A DNA stretch of 64,000 nt from Thermoanaerobaculia bacterium. GTDB lineage: Bacteria > Acidobacteriota > Thermoanaerobaculia > Multivoradales > UBA5704. The notes under the pieces are model-generated. The model ran no database searches. It was not told the DNA's origin and was given only the letters and a program-made list of their open reading frames with translations. Positions 19,402 to 24,269 of the stretch are shown here, piece by piece. The stretch's first letter is position 1, and every line of letters starts with the position of its first letter. A program made the translations under genes and the position numbers. Location of the stretch: contig JBBSBW010000031.1 in NCBI GenBank assembly GCA_038250865.1, positions 8,260 to 72,259 of the forward strand, written 5' to 3'.

Positions 19402-20841
19402 ATGATGATCCGTACCGCAATTCTTCTGCTCTTGCTGCTCCCGGCGGCAGGCTTTCCGCAGGACCTCGACACCGCGGCCTCTGCCGTGGTCCAGATTTCC
19501 GGTACCCGTAATGGCGCTACGGTGCGCGGCAGCGGCTTCGTGGTCGGCCTCGATCGCGACAAGAAAACAGTCTCCGCCGGGCGCAGCGGCAGCAACGTCG
19601 CAATCACCGTTGGTGACGACAAGGCCATGATCGTCACCGTCTCGCATGTGATCGCGGGTCTCGAAAACATCCAGGTGACCTTCGCGGCGGACCTCACCGA
19701 GAGCTTTCCTGCCGAGGGGTTCCTGAGGATGGACGCCGAAAGCCCCAAGGGACCGGCCGTCCTCCAAGTCCACGGAGCGCTGCCGGCAGGGGTGACCGTC
19801 TTGAGCTTTGAGAGCGAGAAGCGGCCACGCCTCGGGGAGGCCCTGTACCTGCTGGGCTTTCCTCAGATGGCCACCTCACTGCGCAAGGCCCAGAGAACGC
19901 TGTCGGCCCAAGAAGGAACGTCCCTACTGATCGATCAAGGGCTCGGAGAAGGCTCCTCCGGCGGGCCGGTGCTTCAGAATGGCAAGGTGGTGGGCGTCGT
20001 CACCGGCGTGGACGACCAGACGACCTACGCCGTCGAAGCTGTGGTGGTCCGCGCGGCTCTGGAGGGCTGGGGAGTGAAACTCGGCGGTCAAGCAGCAGCC
20101 CCCCGGACGCCCACAACAGGCGAGGTCCTTTCGGGTCCAGCCCCGATACCACCTTCGCCAGCCCTTTCAGCTTGCGTTCCTGGCCAGTCGGTCACCGAAG
20201 ACGGGGTCGTCTACGTGCGCATCTGCCCTGGTACCTTCACCATGGGCTCGGCCGCCGACGACTCGCAGGCGTACGAAGACGAGAAACCGGCCCACCAAGT
20301 AACGCTGAGCGACGAATTCTGGCTCGGCCAAACCGAGGTCACAAACGCCCAGTACCACCGCATCCAGCCGGATCACGAGGAAGAGGACGAGTTCCCAGCG
20401 GTCGAGGTGACCTGGACCGAAGCGCAAGCGGCCTGCGAGCGCTTCGGCGGCCGGCTGCCCACCGAGGCGGAATGGGAATACGCCGCACGCGCCGGCAGCA
20501 CGACGGCTTGGTCGTTCAGCGCCGGTGACTATGCCTGGAACGAACAGAATGCCGGCAACACACCACACTCCGTCGCCGCGAAGAAGCCCAATCGCTGGGG
20601 CCTATACGACATGCAAGGGAACGTATGGGAGTGGGTGGCAGACTGGTACGCCCCCTACTCTGCTACAGCTCAGCGTGACCCAGACGGCCCGGCGACAGGT
20701 GGATCCCGTGTGTTGCGGGGGGGCGCTTTCAGCCTCCCGCCCGAGTTCCTGCGCTCCGCGTTCCGGAGCAAGTTCCAGCCCTGGCACCGGAGCCGGGCCA
20801 TCGGCTTCCGCTGTGCCCGTGGCCCCCGCCGCCAGCCTTGA
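19402..20841 (+). CDS. Secreted trypsin-like peptidase domain + FGE-sulfatase (SUMF1/CLec-fold) domain protein, paralog A; probable DGR target
   Basis: Signal peptide, GSGF, SHV, GSSGGPVL; FGE motifs FTMGS, RLPTEAEWEYAARAG, WGLYDMQGNVWEWV, RVLRGG and GFRCA. Confidence 0.9.
   Translation: MMIRTAILLLLLLPAAGFPQDLDTAASAVVQISGTRNGATVRGSGFVVGLDRDKKTVSAGRSGSNVAITVGDDKAMIVTVSHVIAGLENIQVTFAADLTESFPAEGFLRMDAESPKGPAVLQVHGALPAGVTVLSFESEKRPRLGEALYLLGFPQMATSLRKAQRTLSAQEGTSLLIDQGLGEGSSGGPVLQNGKVVGVVTGVDDQTTYAVEAVVVRAALEGWGVKLGGQAAAPRTPTTGEVLSGPAPIPPSPALSACVPGQSVTEDGVVYVRICPGTFTMGSAADDSQAYEDEKPAHQVTLSDEFWLGQTEVTNAQYHRIQPDHEEEDEFPAVEVTWTEAQAACERFGGRLPTEAEWEYAARAGSTTAWSFSAGDYAWNEQNAGNTPHSVAAKKPNRWGLYDMQGNVWEWVADWYAPYSATAQRDPDGPATGGSRVLRGGAFSLPPEFLRSAFRSKFQPWHRSRAIGFRCARGPRRQP
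20716..20811 (+). other. Putative DGR variable region VR-A
   Basis: Compared with 22124-22219: 24 mismatches in 96 nt, 23 of them at codon positions 1-2, and 18 with an A in one copy. Confidence 0.75.
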
Positions 20842-20848
20842 ACGCCTC

Positions 20849-22249
20849 ATGCCAACCACCCACCCCATGCTGAACCGCACCGCCCTCGCTTTGCTTCTTC
20901 TCCTCCTCCAGGCGGCAGCCGCCGCGCAGGCCCAGGATCTCGACACCGCCGTCTCCGCCGTGGTGCGGATCTCCGGGACGCGCAACGGCTCCAGGGTGCA
21001 AGGCAGTGGCTTCGTGGTCGGTCTCGCCCCCGGCAAGGCGACGATCGTCACAGCTTCACACGTGATCCAGGGCGTGGAGCAAATCCAGGTGACTTTCGCC
21101 GTCGACCGCACGGAAAGCTTTCCCGCCGGGATCGTGCTCGGGATGGAAGCGGGCAATTCGCGCGGTTTGGCCGTGTTTCAGGTGCGCGGCGACCTACCGG
21201 CGGGGGTGACCGCGCTGAGCTTCGAGACCGAAAGCCAGCTTCGGCGAGGCGAAGACGTGTTCGTCGTCGGCTTTCCGGAGATGGCCGAGACCCCTCTCGC
21301 CCTAAGGCGCACCTTCGCCGGGCCCACCGGCAACTTCCTGCAGCTGGACCAGCCCGCGGGAGAGGGGATCTCCGGCTCCCCGGTGCTGCGCAACGGAGGA
21401 GGGGTGATCGGCGTGGTGGTGGACGAAGACCTGCGGCTCACTTTTGCGGTCAAGGCTTTGGTGGCCCTGGATGCCGTCGCCGGCTGGGGAGGGCCTCTCG
21501 GTGTGCAGACCGGCACCTCGGCCACAAGCGCCCCTGCGAAACCTCGCCCCCCTTCGATCGGGGCCGCTTCCGTCCCTGACACACCGCTTACCGAGAAAGG
21601 CATCGACTACGTCCGCATCTACCCGGGAACCTTCACTATGGGCTCGGCCGAGAACGACCCGCAGGCCGATTCTGACGAAAAGCCGGCCCACCAGGTCACA
21701 CTGAGCGAATTCTGGCTTGGACGAACCGAGGTTACCAACGCCCAGTACCGCCGCGTCCAATCGGATCACAAGGGGGAGGACGACCTGCCGGTGGCGGCCG
21801 TTACATGGACCGAAGCAAAGGCCGCCTGCGAGCATCTTGGTGGCCGGCTGCCCACCGAGGCGGAGTGGGAGTACGCCGCGCGCGCCGGCAGCACGACCGC
21901 CTGGTCGTTCGCTGGCGACGAGAATAGCCTCGGTGACTACGCTTGGTTCGACCAGAATGCGGCCAATGCGACGCACCCCGCCGCAACGAAGAAGCCCAAC
22001 GCCTGGGGTCTCTACGACATGCACGGAAACGTGTGGGAGTGGGTGGCGGACTGGAAAGCCCCCTACACGGCCGCGGCGCAGCGCGACCCGGCCGGCCCAG
22101 CGACAGGTGAGGCCCGTATGGTGCGGGGGGGCGCGTTCGACTTCCCGCCCGGGGACCTGCGCTCCGCGAACCGGGACGGGGACCGGCCCGAGATCCGGAA
22201 CAGGATCATCGGCTTCCGCTGCGCCCGCGACACCCCCAGCGAGCCTTGA
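20849..22249 (+). CDS. Secreted trypsin-like + FGE/CLec-fold protein, paralog B; probable DGR target
   Basis: Start at 20849 (or 20867). Same architecture as paralog A: TASHV, GISGSPVL, RLPTEAEWEYAARAG, GNVWEWV, GFRCA. Confidence 0.9.
   Translation: MPTTHPMLNRTALALLLLLLQAAAAAQAQDLDTAVSAVVRISGTRNGSRVQGSGFVVGLAPGKATIVTASHVIQGVEQIQVTFAVDRTESFPAGIVLGMEAGNSRGLAVFQVRGDLPAGVTALSFETESQLRRGEDVFVVGFPEMAETPLALRRTFAGPTGNFLQLDQPAGEGISGSPVLRNGGGVIGVVVDEDLRLTFAVKALVALDAVAGWGGPLGVQTGTSATSAPAKPRPPSIGAASVPDTPLTEKGIDYVRIYPGTFTMGSAENDPQADSDEKPAHQVTLSEFWLGRTEVTNAQYRRVQSDHKGEDDLPVAAVTWTEAKAACEHLGGRLPTEAEWEYAARAGSTTAWSFAGDENSLGDYAWFDQNAANATHPAATKKPNAWGLYDMHGNVWEWVADWKAPYTAAAQRDPAGPATGEARMVRGGAFDFPPGDLRSANRDGDRPEIRNRIIGFRCARDTPSEP
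22124..22219 (+). other. Putative DGR variable region VR-B
   Basis: Third codon positions match VR-A in 31 of 32 codons; the variable codons are all NNC/NNG apart from one GCT/GCG pair. Confidence 0.75.
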
Positions 22250-22268
22250 CGCTACAATTGCGTCCACC

Positions 22269-23036
22269 ATGCTCGCAGAGACGAATCGAAGCCGGCGCCT
22301 CGGGCGGATGGCCTTCGCCGCCCTCCTCCTCACCGCCCTGCCACTGCTTGCCCAGTACGACCCCAAACTCCAATACCAGGACCGCGGCGATCGCCGGGAG
22401 GGCTTGAAGCCCAAGCCGGTGAGCGGCAACGACGTCGAGCTTCTCTCGGCCCTCGTGGACTACCGCGAGGAGGGAGGCTCCGGCTGGTCCCCGGCGCTCC
22501 ATCTCAGGTTCGTCCTCCCTGCTGCCGGGCCGGTGTCGATCACCGTCCGCCAGCCACGGCCGAAGACCCTCTACTACTGGCTCGACGAGGTCGTGCCCCG
22601 GTTACCGTGGCGCCCCCGGGCGGTCAACGAATACACCTGGCCGACGGAGCCGGTCCTCCAGAAGTTGAGCGCAGTGACCCTGGAGGATCTCGGTGCTGTC
22701 GTGCGCCTCAGCACCGCGAAAGGCCCATCCAAACAGGAGAGGGTCGCCCCCGCGGCGCTCTTCCAGACGCAGCCGCCGACGGCCGCGAGCGGCTACCGCT
22801 TCACTTTTAAGACCAACGGAACGGCGTATGTGACGGGCAAGATCTACCGGGGCGACCAGAAGGTTTTCGAGCGACAGCAGAACCGCGAGACTGCAGGCAG
22901 CCCGTTCACCTTGAGTTGGCCAGCCCAGGGGCAACCAGACGGGGAGTACCGGCTCGTCCTCTCCGGCTTCTTCGACAACACCAACGACCAACTCGCCCAG
23001 GAGGTAGTCTTCTACCATAGGGCTTCCTGGAAATGA
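22269..23036 (+). CDS. Secreted hypothetical protein (beta-rich)
   Basis: Start MLAETN, signal peptide (LLA-Q), coherent coding frame directly after paralog B. Confidence 0.75.
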   Translation: MLAETNRSRRLGRMAFAALLLTALPLLAQYDPKLQYQDRGDRREGLKPKPVSGNDVELLSALVDYREEGGSGWSPALHLRFVLPAAGPVSITVRQPRPKTLYYWLDEVVPRLPWRPRAVNEYTWPTEPVLQKLSAVTLEDLGAVVRLSTAKGPSKQERVAPAALFQTQPPTAASGYRFTFKTNGTAYVTGKIYRGDQKVFERQQNRETAGSPFTLSWPAQGQPDGEYRLVLSGFFDNTNDQLAQEVVFYHRASWK

Positions 23037-23057
23037 GTCGGCCGCTCTACAAGGGGC

Positions 23058-24269
23058 ATGATCTTGACGTCTGAACCGGAGCCGGGGAAAACGCCGGGGG
23101 TCTCAAAACACAGGAGAGGCCAGGCCCGAAGCGGCGAGGCGGTACCGTCGCGCCGGGGGCAGCGCATGTGGCTTCTGCTCGTACTGGTCGCCGTGATCTT
23201 GCTGACGTTGGTGGGGTTCTCGACCTTCTGGCACTTGCCGACCCGAGTCCAGCTCGACCTGGAGACCACCCGGCTGGGCATCTCCCTTGGGGGTACGCAG
23301 CGCCGCGAAGTCTTCGACCGTTCCGTGCCGTTCTCAGCTCTCGTCATTGAGGATTGCAACGCGGTGGCCTTCGCCGCGGAGACGCTGGAGGTCGCGGACC
23401 CGCAACAGCTCGTGCCGGGAACGGAGACGCAGGCACCGCACTTCCCGGTCGAGGCTTGGCGCGTGCTCCCACACACCAACCCAGTGAAGCTCCCGTGCCG
23501 GGACCCGGAGGCCAAGCTGACCCTGCGGAATCCCGATCCGGCCGCGGCGACGACTGGAACCCTCGATCAGGTCTACCTCGCCCCGGGCTCGCAGGTGATT
23601 CTTGAGGTCTCGCCGGGTCGGGAGACCGCCATTAGCCTGGAGATCGAGACGCCCCAGGACCTGCACCTCGCAGTGGGTCCCGATCTTGAGCTGGTGGCCG
23701 ACTTCGTCGCGCCCGAGGGCGTCGCCGTTCCCTTCCAAGGCTCCCCTCTGACCTGGCGGGCGCGGCTTCCGGAGGCGCGCCGATTTCTTGACCTCACGAG
23801 CGGCGATCACGGGCTTGTCCTGATCGTCACCCCGGCACAGGGCAGGGCCGCGGAAATGTTCCCTGAGAAGCCGGACTTCCCCCTGACCTCGTTGGAGCTG
23901 CTTGAGGAAAGCCTGCGAGGAGATCTCACCTCGCCGCTGCGAAGCCCGGCCAAGCTCAGCTATTCCGACTATCCAGACGTCCCATCTGTGACCATCGAGC
24001 CGAACGAGGACCTGGGCCTTGGCAGGCTCTCGAAGGCACGGTTGACCCGTCTCAGTTTCGACCCCGAAAACGGCGTACTTCGCGTGGGATTCGACGGTAT
24101 TGCCGAACGCCCCGCCAGCAAGGCCGGGGAGTTTGTCCGGGACCACCGCCTGACGCTCTTCCACGCCGTCCGCTATAGCTGGCGTTGGGCGTTGATCGCC
24201 AAGGTCGGGTTCTGGCTCGTGACCGCAATCCTGGCTGTCTACGGGGCCTGGAAGAAAGTCCAGGAGTGA
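23058..24269 (+). CDS. Hypothetical membrane protein with N- and C-terminal TM helices around a large soluble domain
   Basis: TM segments MWLLLVLVAVILLTLVGF and WALIAKVGFWLVTAILAVYGAW; start uncertain. Confidence 0.75.
   Translation: MILTSEPEPGKTPGVSKHRRGQARSGEAVPSRRGQRMWLLLVLVAVILLTLVGFSTFWHLPTRVQLDLETTRLGISLGGTQRREVFDRSVPFSALVIEDCNAVAFAAETLEVADPQQLVPGTETQAPHFPVEAWRVLPHTNPVKLPCRDPEAKLTLRNPDPAAATTGTLDQVYLAPGSQVILEVSPGRETAISLEIETPQDLHLAVGPDLELVADFVAPEGVAVPFQGSPLTWRARLPEARRFLDLTSGDHGLVLIVTPAQGRAAEMFPEKPDFPLTSLELLEESLRGDLTSPLRSPAKLSYSDYPDVPSVTIEPNEDLGLGRLSKARLTRLSFDPENGVLRVGFDGIAERPASKAGEFVRDHRLTLFHAVRYSWRWALIAKVGFWLVTAILAVYGAWKKVQE

Follow-up and report, generated by a model that had tools for sequence, protein, structure and literature searches.

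Two tandem genes in the 64-kb stretch of Thermoanaerobaculia DNA analysed here (the window) are predicted to encode exported fusions of a trypsin-like domain with a TvpA-like C-type lectin (CLec) binding domain of the formylglycine-generating enzyme (FGE) fold. The last ~115 nt of the CLec domain in each gene form a variable region (VR); a comparison of the VRs with each other and with templates (TRs) of the same family makes it well supported that both were written by a diversity-generating retroelement (DGR) from one shared template. On balance, the two genes appear to have been remote (trans) DGR targets that have become orphaned or silent in the population sampled.

Architecture of the two tandem genes

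Gene A (19402..20841, + strand) is an ORF of 479 aa comprising a signal peptide, a Trypsin_2 domain, a linker and an FGE-sulfatase/CLec domain whose C-terminal part holds the VR. Gene B (20867..22249, + strand) encodes 460 aa in the protein collection, has an alternative ATG at 20849 and repeats the make-up of signal peptide, Trypsin_2 and FGE-sulfatase. The Trypsin_2 domain of gene A is recognised by Pfam at 6e-9 and contains a private 20-aa insertion; the FGE-sulfatase domains (PF03781) have E-values of 2.7e-47 (gene A) and 3.1e-49.

Across 20 homologues, the trypsin-like domain keeps the His of T[AV]SHV and the Ser of GEGFSGGP without exception. The position of the canonical Asp in D[LI]A[VL]L is occupied by Gly in at least 18 of the 20, and a conserved D/E is found seven residues upstream. 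The preliminary description called the products secreted proteases; the protease label needs a caveat, since the canonical catalytic Asp is replaced by Gly across the family.

The top PDB match of the FGE/CLec domain is the DGR variable protein TvpA (2Y3C, E 1e-26), with an alignment that is gap-free over the VR; an alignment of 20 homologues has hypervariable columns from RGG to GFRC. FGEs (SUMF1/FGE; PDB 1Y1E, 2Q17, 6MUJ) share the PF03781 fold at E ~1e-23 to 1e-26 but, unlike them, the proteins of genes A and B lack the two catalytic cysteines as well as the loop around them. The Cys pair was sought in the RGGS..C....C..YR loop, where alignment to FGE structures places RGGAFSLPPEF---LR of the window against RGGSYLCHDSYCNRYR of FGEs; SLPPEF with a three-residue gap stands in the place of LCHDSYCNRY (6MUJ, 2Q17, 2AII). 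The domain thus has a TvpA-like CLec/FGE fold devoid of the catalytic Cys, as had been proposed and as both the PDB match and the FGE alignment indicate. Judging from these residues, the products of genes A and B are not formylglycine-generating enzymes, and Trypsin-FGE genes should not be annotated as such.

Mismatch pattern of the variable regions

VR-A (20695..20811, + strand) was delimited by its codon-position pattern, the placement of variable sites on adenines of real TRs and its scaffold identity with VR-B (22103..22219, + strand), the second VR ascribed to the same template by the VR–VR comparison. The counts given in the preliminary description for 20716-20811 against 22124-22219 were reproduced in codon register: there are 24 mismatches, distributed as 11, 12 and 1 over codon positions 1, 2 and 3, with 13 codons that change the amino acid and two that are synonymous. 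The DGR-like stretch probably starts ~20 nt before this core, at ~20695/22103, because five further mismatches lie at 20701-20713; four of these are at positions 1-2, and a template adenine could account for every one.

Upstream of the VRs, third positions dominate, as had also been described; they account for 63 of 106 mismatches in 171 aligned FGE-domain codons (20200-20715) and for 202 of 384 in all 410 upstream codons. Positions 1-2 hold 23 of the 24 VR mismatches versus 47% upstream (Fisher p=1.6e-6 for positions 1-2 against 3), and third-position identity is 31/32 in the VR versus 108/171 (63%) upstream (Fisher p=4.5e-5). An A is present in one copy at 18 of the 24 VR mismatches, as compared with 168/384 upstream (Fisher p=0.005). 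Of 26 hypervariable sites, 22 differ between VR-A and VR-B, and the two have an identical scaffold, with zero true non-adenine differences; the scaffold of VR-A is also identical to those of VRs in three related loci (L018, L034, L029). The possibility that VR-B served as the template of VR-A, or the reverse, was rejected, as some mismatches fall on bases other than A whichever copy is taken as the template.

Correspondence with real templates

Metagenomes yielded real TRs belonging to the same DGR family, and those of L026, L030 and L031 were used for comparison. The inferred TR, represented by the pattern GTATGATGCGGGGGGGCGCATTCAACA[AT]CCCGCCC[AG]AGAACCTGCGCTCCGCGAACCGGAACAAGAACCAGCCCAAGAACCGGAACAGGAACATCGGCTTCCGC, would be 82-87% identical to VR-A and VR-B. 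The template reconstructed in the preliminary description fits the family, its equivalent here being 76-82% identical to the three real TRs. The sites that differ between A and B fall on 16-19 of the 23-26 adenines of these TRs, versus 7-10 of the 78-81 other sites (Fisher p 2e-7 to 8e-10). In the bona fide DGR of L030, used as a control, TR and VR differ at 17/27 A sites and at 0/100 non-A sites. Bona fide TR/VR/RT cassettes with the same scaffold are present in L003, L009, L010, L016, L019, L030 and L031. Six of these (L030, L031, L009, L010, L016, L019) share the scaffold ...RGG.F..P..NLRSANR...GFRC with the window genes and have AAC-rich template codons, as inferred here. They carry Avd-TR-RT between or beside the target genes, whereas the window and every Thermoanaerobaculia/Holophagales locus examined are devoid of it.

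The earlier view of the two stretches as DGR-type VRs from one common template therefore holds, the differing sites being the adenine sites of real TRs. DGR authorship is well supported by this coincidence, by TvpA as the closest structure and by the IMH-like end of copy A. As to the mechanism, we infer that a shared TR would have been reverse-transcribed into cDNA with its adenines copied at random, and that mutagenic retrohoming would have overwritten both VRs. Retrohoming from a single template would leave VRs that are identical at non-adenine template sites, third positions included, and different at hypervariable ones (22/26).

An origin that never involved a DGR, in which diversifying selection acted on ligand-contact residues while gene conversion or codon constraint fixed the framework codons, is barely credible. 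It would agree with the failure to find a TR or RT in the window, in the loci of relatives, in contigs of the source metagenome (X1) and in JGI contigs, and some concerted evolution is indeed visible, the FGE domains of the paralogues being 75-86% identical at the amino-acid level versus 58-61% for the protease domains. Gene conversion, however, would have homogenised the variable sites as well as the scaffold, and the conserved residues directly upstream of the VRs use synonymous codons freely. Furthermore, this origin would leave unexplained why the variable sites fall on adenines of real TRs from this sequence family. At the nucleotide level, the VRs also agree with bona fide DGR VRs from other phyla in their scaffold, IMH-like tail and NNC codon pattern.

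IMH-like tails

Gene A ends in an IMH-like element (20821..20841, + strand; GGCCCCCGCCGCCAGCCTTGA), which consists of a G/C run followed by AGCCTTGA. Among the VRs and TRs of L025-L035, GGCCCCCGCCGCCAGCCTTGA is the end of bona fide VRs, whereas TRs continue with ...CCGCCGCCAACATGCC; the element was also compared with L005, L007, L018 and L021_g2. In the family cassettes the IMH reads CCCCCGCCGCCAGCCTTGA in VRs versus ...CCAACATGCC in TRs, and the element of gene A resembles it. The counterpart in copy B (22229..22249, + strand; GACACCCCCAGCGAGCCTTGA) is apparently disrupted, because it has five changes in 21 nt, all at codon positions 1-2.

The IMH-type tail is found on gene A in the window and on the orthologue of B in L021, which suggests that C-terminal modules have moved between the paralogues. 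This movement is one of two observations that agree with import of the VR alleles, whereby diversified segments would have been recombined from related strains with an active DGR and the cassette would never have resided in this lineage; the other is that third-position divergence of the VRs is equally low within and between species. Such import is nevertheless very unlikely: it would need two independent short conversion tracts ending exactly at the VR borders, no donor sequences were detected in the X1 contigs, and a DGR would still be needed in the donor, so that only the place of retrohoming would differ.

Search for a cassette

As the preliminary description had stated, the window contains no cassette; a third VR copy, an RT and Avd were all sought and none was found. 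A blastn search with word size 7 detected no third VR copy in the 64-kb window, a six-frame YxDD scan and tblastn with two family RTs detected no DGR-clade RT, and tblastn with the Avd-like protein of L031 detected no Avd. The same protein has tblastn matches in L009, L010, L016, L019, L025, L030 and L035. The 8-21 kb examined around each related acidobacterial locus likewise yielded no TR, RT or Avd; these loci include the syntenic L021 as well as L022, L023, L007/L032, L018/L024, L029 and L034. Since neither this locus nor its syntenic relative has a cassette, genes A and B are best regarded as presumed remote (trans) targets.

Wider scans were also negative. The TR-state pattern with the 5' signature of the subfamily had 0 matches in JGI metagenome contigs; two scans of viral contigs, one of them with the TR-state pattern, had 0 matches; and no spurious TR ORFs turned up when the inferred TR was translated in frame and compared with the protein collection. 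The window's own contig was not among the matches of a scaffold-pattern scan of genome contigs. On known plasmids and phages the family RT has none but distant homologues (<40% identity), which lend no support to a mobile carrier. Extra VR-like copies between the L007/L032 genes were considered as TRs and rejected; they have a VR-type IMH, the downstream flanks of the neighbouring VRs and 12-16% A.

RT remnants occur between the VR genes in L005 and L027, which indicates that cassette decay recurs in this DGR family, and the VR scaffolds are progressively decayed in L021 and L022; both observations favour orphan status. At least five genomes have VR scaffolds as fresh as those of the window. 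Pristine scaffolds in A and B and in these genomes point to recent or continuing templating somewhere and count against orphan status.

Allele state in the source metagenome

Logan contigs of X1 were mapped on each VR at ≥80% likeness. The locus is well covered (98% of its words at 14-16x), and the contigs that map on VR-A and VR-B are exclusively those of the organism itself: there is no TR-like contig of any length and there are no VR variants, bearing in mind that the population evidence comes from contigs, not raw reads, and that Logan contigs can demonstrate presence but never prove absence. The aligner was sensitive enough to report partial matches of 33-43 nt in the same mappings. In the positive control, the bona fide DGR of L030, the TR was recovered at 85-87% identity in 4/4 runs together with VR variants, several of which were assembled in run X5. 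When X1 was mapped on a family cassette, no RT contig appeared at the organism's depth; X1-X4 gave only ~40-nt scraps on the TR+RT cassette of L031, and no TR of two other orphan pairs of the subfamily (L034 and L032) was found in their source runs. X1, X2 and X4 share one VR-A allele, and each VR is single-allele in the X1 contigs. According to the contig evidence from X1, which is the best available proxy, a template elsewhere in the genome is argued against.

The assembly graph of X1 has a fork inside VR-A (unitig junction 20732-20760). A 293-nt unitig upstream of the fork has a depth of 6 versus 14-16 on either side and could hide heterogeneity; no alternative contig was found behind it in X1.

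An active TR/RT/Avd cassette situated >20-40 kb away, or on the ~20 kb of the 84,777-nt contig beyond the window, would slowly rewrite VR-A, and possibly also VR-B, in trans. Although unlikely, this arrangement has precedents: non-phage DGRs have documented remote targets that lie >100 kb away from the RT (PMC5758913), and trans-acting cassettes are documented in Thiohalocapsa (PMC10907252). It would also suit the pristine scaffolds of both VRs, the intact IMH-like element of VR-A and the fork in the assembly graph; moreover, DGR cassettes are often on contigs of 1-5 kb, and the RTs of this clade lie mostly on short contigs, which would be lost in binning. It is opposed by the lack of a TR-like contig in X1 at 14-16x when the control TR was recovered in 4/4 runs, by the lack of assembled VR variants in X1, unlike X5, by the shared VR-A allele of three metagenomes and by the disrupted IMH of VR-B.

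A non-resident writer is conceivable, because fresh identical scaffolds occur in several Thermoanaerobaculia/Holophagales species and no template was found in three independent source metagenomes. In such a ‘hit-and-run’ scheme, a rare, transient or mobile DGR on a low-abundance replicon, a phage or in a minority genotype would act in trans, in more than one species, on conserved IMH-bearing targets in the chromosome; this scheme is distinctly unlikely. Were it true, alleles would be frozen between visits and the destroyed IMH of copy B would lock in a useful allele.

Orphaned VRs remain the preferred explanation, as the TR and RT are undetectable, the VR-A allele is fixed and the IMH-like element of copy B is disrupted in the sampled population. 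The cassette may have been lost recently or be confined to rare cells, and the VRs would now be ordinary, frozen, divergent binding tips.

Comparison with known systems

TvpA of Treponema denticola (PDB 2Y3C; Le Coq & Ghosh 2011, cited in PMC7159879) has the same FGE-type C-type lectin fold; its VR likewise lies at the extreme C-terminus of the CLec-fold (FGE-subtype) domain, bounded by RGG and GFRC, and it too is devoid of the FGE catalytic cysteines. As proposed for A and B, one TR in T. denticola serves several targets, some of them far from the RT (PMC5758913). The TR and RT are, however, present in the Treponema genome and none was found here; the N-terminal partner in the window is trypsin-like, and the genes belong to a four-gene cluster with two envelope proteins of no known family.

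In Thiohalocapsa PB-PSB1 (Dore et al. 2024, PMC10907252), targets lacking an RT and a TR were linked to a distant TR through perfect agreement at non-adenine sites, cassettes have been eroded by mobile elements, targets have CLec/FGE C-termini and the target of DGR 1 has no current variability, which resembles A and B. For those loci, unlike A and B, the study identified the cognate TR and quantified diversification from reads (PMC10907252). The Thiohalocapsa targets are cytoplasmic conflict-system sensors (STAND, vWA, CHAT/TIR) and a trypsin-like peptidase is usually encoded by a neighbouring gene (PMC10907252), whereas here it is fused to the CLec domain and exported. The preliminary description knew of no characterised DGR target with this architecture; it is not new in kind, since Wu et al. 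2018 (PMC5758913) list protease-related target architectures.

Gene cluster and family

Genes A and B are followed by gene C (22269..23036, + strand), encoding a secreted 255-aa protein of no known family that is conserved directly downstream of Trypsin-FGE genes in relatives, and by gene D (23058..24269, + strand), the fourth gene of the cluster, whose 403-aa product of no known family has N- and C-terminal hydrophobic helices. A large family of exported trypsin-like/CLec fusions is thereby added to the DGR-shaped proteins; it is mostly acidobacterial and comprises thousands of proteins, often encoded by several genes in tandem and always followed by the two envelope genes. Two paralogous VRs suffice to reveal the DGR signature, and heterologous templates provide a check on it. 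Fresh VRs set against missing templates in three metagenomes bear on the persistence of DGR targets after loss of the retroelement and on the possible transience of cassettes. The synteny of genes C and D with Trypsin-FGE genes is retained in L021, L022 and L023.

Protein Architecture and Gene Neighbourhood

The tandem protease–lectin paralogues, gene A (19402–20841, 479 aa) and gene B (starting at 20867 or 20849 and ending at 22249), each encode a protein that begins with a signal peptide, continues with a Trypsin_2 domain and ends in an FGE-sulfatase domain (PF03781). This Trypsin_2–FGE architecture is characteristic of a large family found mainly in Thermoanaerobaculia. The signal peptide junction (AxA-Q followed by DLD) is conserved in the homologue alignment, and the mature proteins are presumably exported. 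In an alignment including the proteins of 19402–22249, His and Ser are invariant, but nearly every family member has Gly (G[LP]AVFQV) where the trypsin fold canonically carries its catalytic Asp (D[LI]A[VL]L); because of this replacement, the peptidase activity of A and B may be atypical. A conserved D/E is located seven residues upstream of the canonical Asp position. Residues ~67–88 of protein A (19600–19665; KTVSAGRSGSNVAITVGDDKAM region) comprise a private 20-residue insertion in the trypsin-like domain, missing in all 19 aligned homologues, including a 90%-identical orthologue. In PADLOC, the trypsin-like domains weakly match LmuA and the protease portion of ‘RT-Protease_XI’ defence genes (E 6e-9 to 9e-11), probably through a shared fold only.

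The FGE-type domains lack both catalytic cysteines of formylglycine-generating enzymes (FGE) when aligned to FGE structures, in accordance with the preliminary description, and the closest solved structure is that of TvpA, a variable protein of a Treponema denticola diversity-generating retroelement (DGR), ahead of genuine FGEs. In 20 homologues, the hypervariable columns are those between RGG and GFRC, with the rest of the domain highly conserved. The C-type-lectin tip would bind a ligand differing between A and B, and the trypsin-like domain would act on this ligand or on a partner.

The same two genes of no known family come after the tandem Trypsin–FGE genes in the window, in L021 (a Holophagales MAG locus orthologous and syntenic to the window's) and in the related loci L022 and L023. 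The conserved cluster (window 19402–24269; L021 10001–14803; L022 8310–17450; L023 10001–13619) consists of one to five tandem Trypsin_2–FGE genes, always followed by genes for a ~250-aa secreted protein and a ~390–400-aa protein with terminal transmembrane helices, neither of which matches a Pfam or PADLOC family. The window's representatives of these constant companions are gene C (22269–23036), with a secreted product, and gene D (23058–24269), whose product has two predicted transmembrane helices.

Origin of the Variable Regions

A codon-register comparison of the C-terminal variable regions (VRs), VR-A (20716–20811) and VR-B (22124–22219), gives 24 mismatches, distributed 11/12/1 over codon positions 1/2/3; A is present in one copy at 18 of them and the amino acid is altered in 13 codons, which exactly reproduces the earlier counts. 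Upstream, the mismatch pattern is ordinary and, as had also been claimed, mostly third-position (63 of 106 within the FGE domain; 202 of 384 overall; Fisher p about 1e-6 for the shift). The key feature is the frozen third positions of the VRs: 31 of 32 are identical, versus 108 of 171 upstream (Fisher p = 4.5e-5). Selection on the protein cannot yield this, and gene conversion would have wiped out the position 1–2 differences too. That no DGR was ever involved is very improbable. Since five mismatches at 20701–20713 behave like those in the core, the pattern probably begins ~20 nt further 5′, near 20695.

Scanning one genome per GTDB species with the invariant scaffold CCCGNGNNCCTGCGCTCCGCGNNCCGG yielded 20 loci, several of which pair a single A-rich copy with one or two A-poor copies, on opposite strands, and adjoin reverse transcriptases (RTs) with the DGR motifs LGS[WY][FL]SQ...YMDD. 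A second scan, with the 3′ element that copy A shares with its closest relatives (GGCTTCCGCTGYG..CG...CCCCCGCCGCCA), revealed real template repeats (TRs) of the A/B subfamily in L026, L030, L031, L033 and L035; these contain 24–37% A and end in ...CCGCCGCCAACATGCC, where VRs end in ...CCGCCGCCAGCCTTGA. The cassette is full in L030 and L031 (target, (HTH), Avd-like gene, TR, RT). The L030 TR and its own VR disagree at 17 of 27 adenines and at 0 of 100 non-adenine positions, which makes this pair a clean positive control for the family. The sites that differ between VR-A and VR-B coincide with 16–19 of the 23–26 adenines of these heterologous TRs versus 7–10 of 78–81 other sites (p 2e-7 to 8e-10), and the template inferred from both VRs is 76–82% identical to real TRs, bearing out the proposed DGR signature. 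Given this coincidence, the fold relation to TvpA and the hypervariable columns, it is well supported, and very likely, that a DGR wrote both VRs from one common template.

Search for the Cassette

The 64-kb window, part of an 84.8-kb contig, contains no third VR-like copy (blastn, word size 7), no Y.DD RT motif and no RT or Avd detectable by tblastn with two family RTs and one Avd, confirming the earlier statement that RT and template are absent from it. Neither RT, Avd nor TR occurs within 8–21 kb of the Trypsin–FGE genes in the window, L021, L022 and L023; therefore, we infer that the locus never housed a cassette and that its VRs were written in trans. Remote DGR targets are documented (PMC5758913; PMC10907252), and Wu et al. 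2018 (PMC5758913) had previously listed protease-related target architectures. The closest known cases are TvpA, together with remote targets in Treponema, and the Thiohalocapsa loci whose DGRs are incomplete or act in trans.

The source sediment metagenome (X1), examined as Logan contigs, contains 98% of the locus's words at 14–16x. Contigs matching VR-A or VR-B at ≥80% likeness were only the organism's own, with zero differences, and the other paralogue's tail; no TR-like piece or VR variant was found among them. The inferred TR would be 82–87% identical to VR-A and VR-B, and the aligner reported partial matches down to 33–43 nt. In the L030 control, all four runs gave a 129–132-nt contig on the VR at locus depth, bearing the TR's own 3′ flank and 17–19 differences, each of them an A, read on the coding strand, in place of the VR base; run X5 gave four low-depth VR variants as well. 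Two orphan pairs of the same subfamily, L034 in run X27 and L032 in X31, yielded their own copies only. The VR-A allele recurs letter for letter in X4 and in X2, the latter being a soil metagenome of a different study.

Decay and Present State of the System

In copy B, the counterpart of the IMH, the element ending the VR, has five changes in 21 nt. Scaffold decay is graded, from none in the window and L034, through 3–6 changes per VR in L021, to general drift in L022. Cassette erosion is recurrent in the family, since in L005 (2712–3326) and L027 (1219–1491) two convergent VR-bearing genes flank a DGR RT reduced to 90–210-aa fragments; the VR scaffolds of these eroded cassettes are still intact.

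The lack of TR and VR variants in X1, the fixed VR-A allele, the changed IMH of B, the family-wide erosion and the graded decay somewhat favour the reading that VR-A and VR-B are now orphaned or silent. The cassette would have been lost recently or be confined to cells too rare for assembly. Absence, however, is not provable from contigs, and family RTs are often on 1–5-kb contigs; the VR scaffolds are also strikingly fresh, their third-position divergence being 0.05–0.13 in every within- and between-species comparison, versus 0.24–0.59 elsewhere. Moreover, the X1 graph forks inside VR-A, where the unitig 20468–20760, reaching from the end of gene A to mid VR-A, meets the next one at 20732–20760; its k-mer depth is 6.2, about half the flanking 13.9–16, and no alternative contig was found in X1. 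An active remote cassette in the same genome is rather unlikely. Fresh VRs without a template recur in three metagenomes, the less ordinary aspect of this case, which is compatible with a transient or mobile cassette; relatives of the family RTs on known plasmids and phages are distant only and so lend this idea no direct support. Imported alleles or a transient cassette are less likely still than an active remote cassette.

The IMH-type C-terminal tail (CARGPRRQP-stop) is carried by gene A in the window (20812–20841) and by the gene B orthologue in L021 (12740–12779), so C-terminal modules have moved between paralogues. Concerted evolution is also seen in the paralogues' FGE domains when these are compared with the protease domains. 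In L007 (4540–5025; equivalent to L032 3560–3760 etc.), two extra, partly decayed gene 3′-end copies lie between two convergent FGE genes, each containing a VR, a tail resembling the IMH and the downstream flank of the neighbour. At the end of JANNIH010000076.1 in a sister MAG (L024, 11087–13323), an FGE-only gene whose VR and IMH are intact precedes a DUF559 gene and an IS21 (IstB/IstA); any downstream cassette would be cut off or disrupted at this contig end. Many VR loci (L025, L027, L030, L034) have short repeats of the TTGA(C/T) type (CCTTGAnCnTTGnnnnTTGAC) in the spacer immediately 3′ of the IMH. In L034 (9160–9227), ~60 nt of this spacer reach a depth of ~1300 in run X27, versus 7–8 for the genes, suggesting an element repeated many times.
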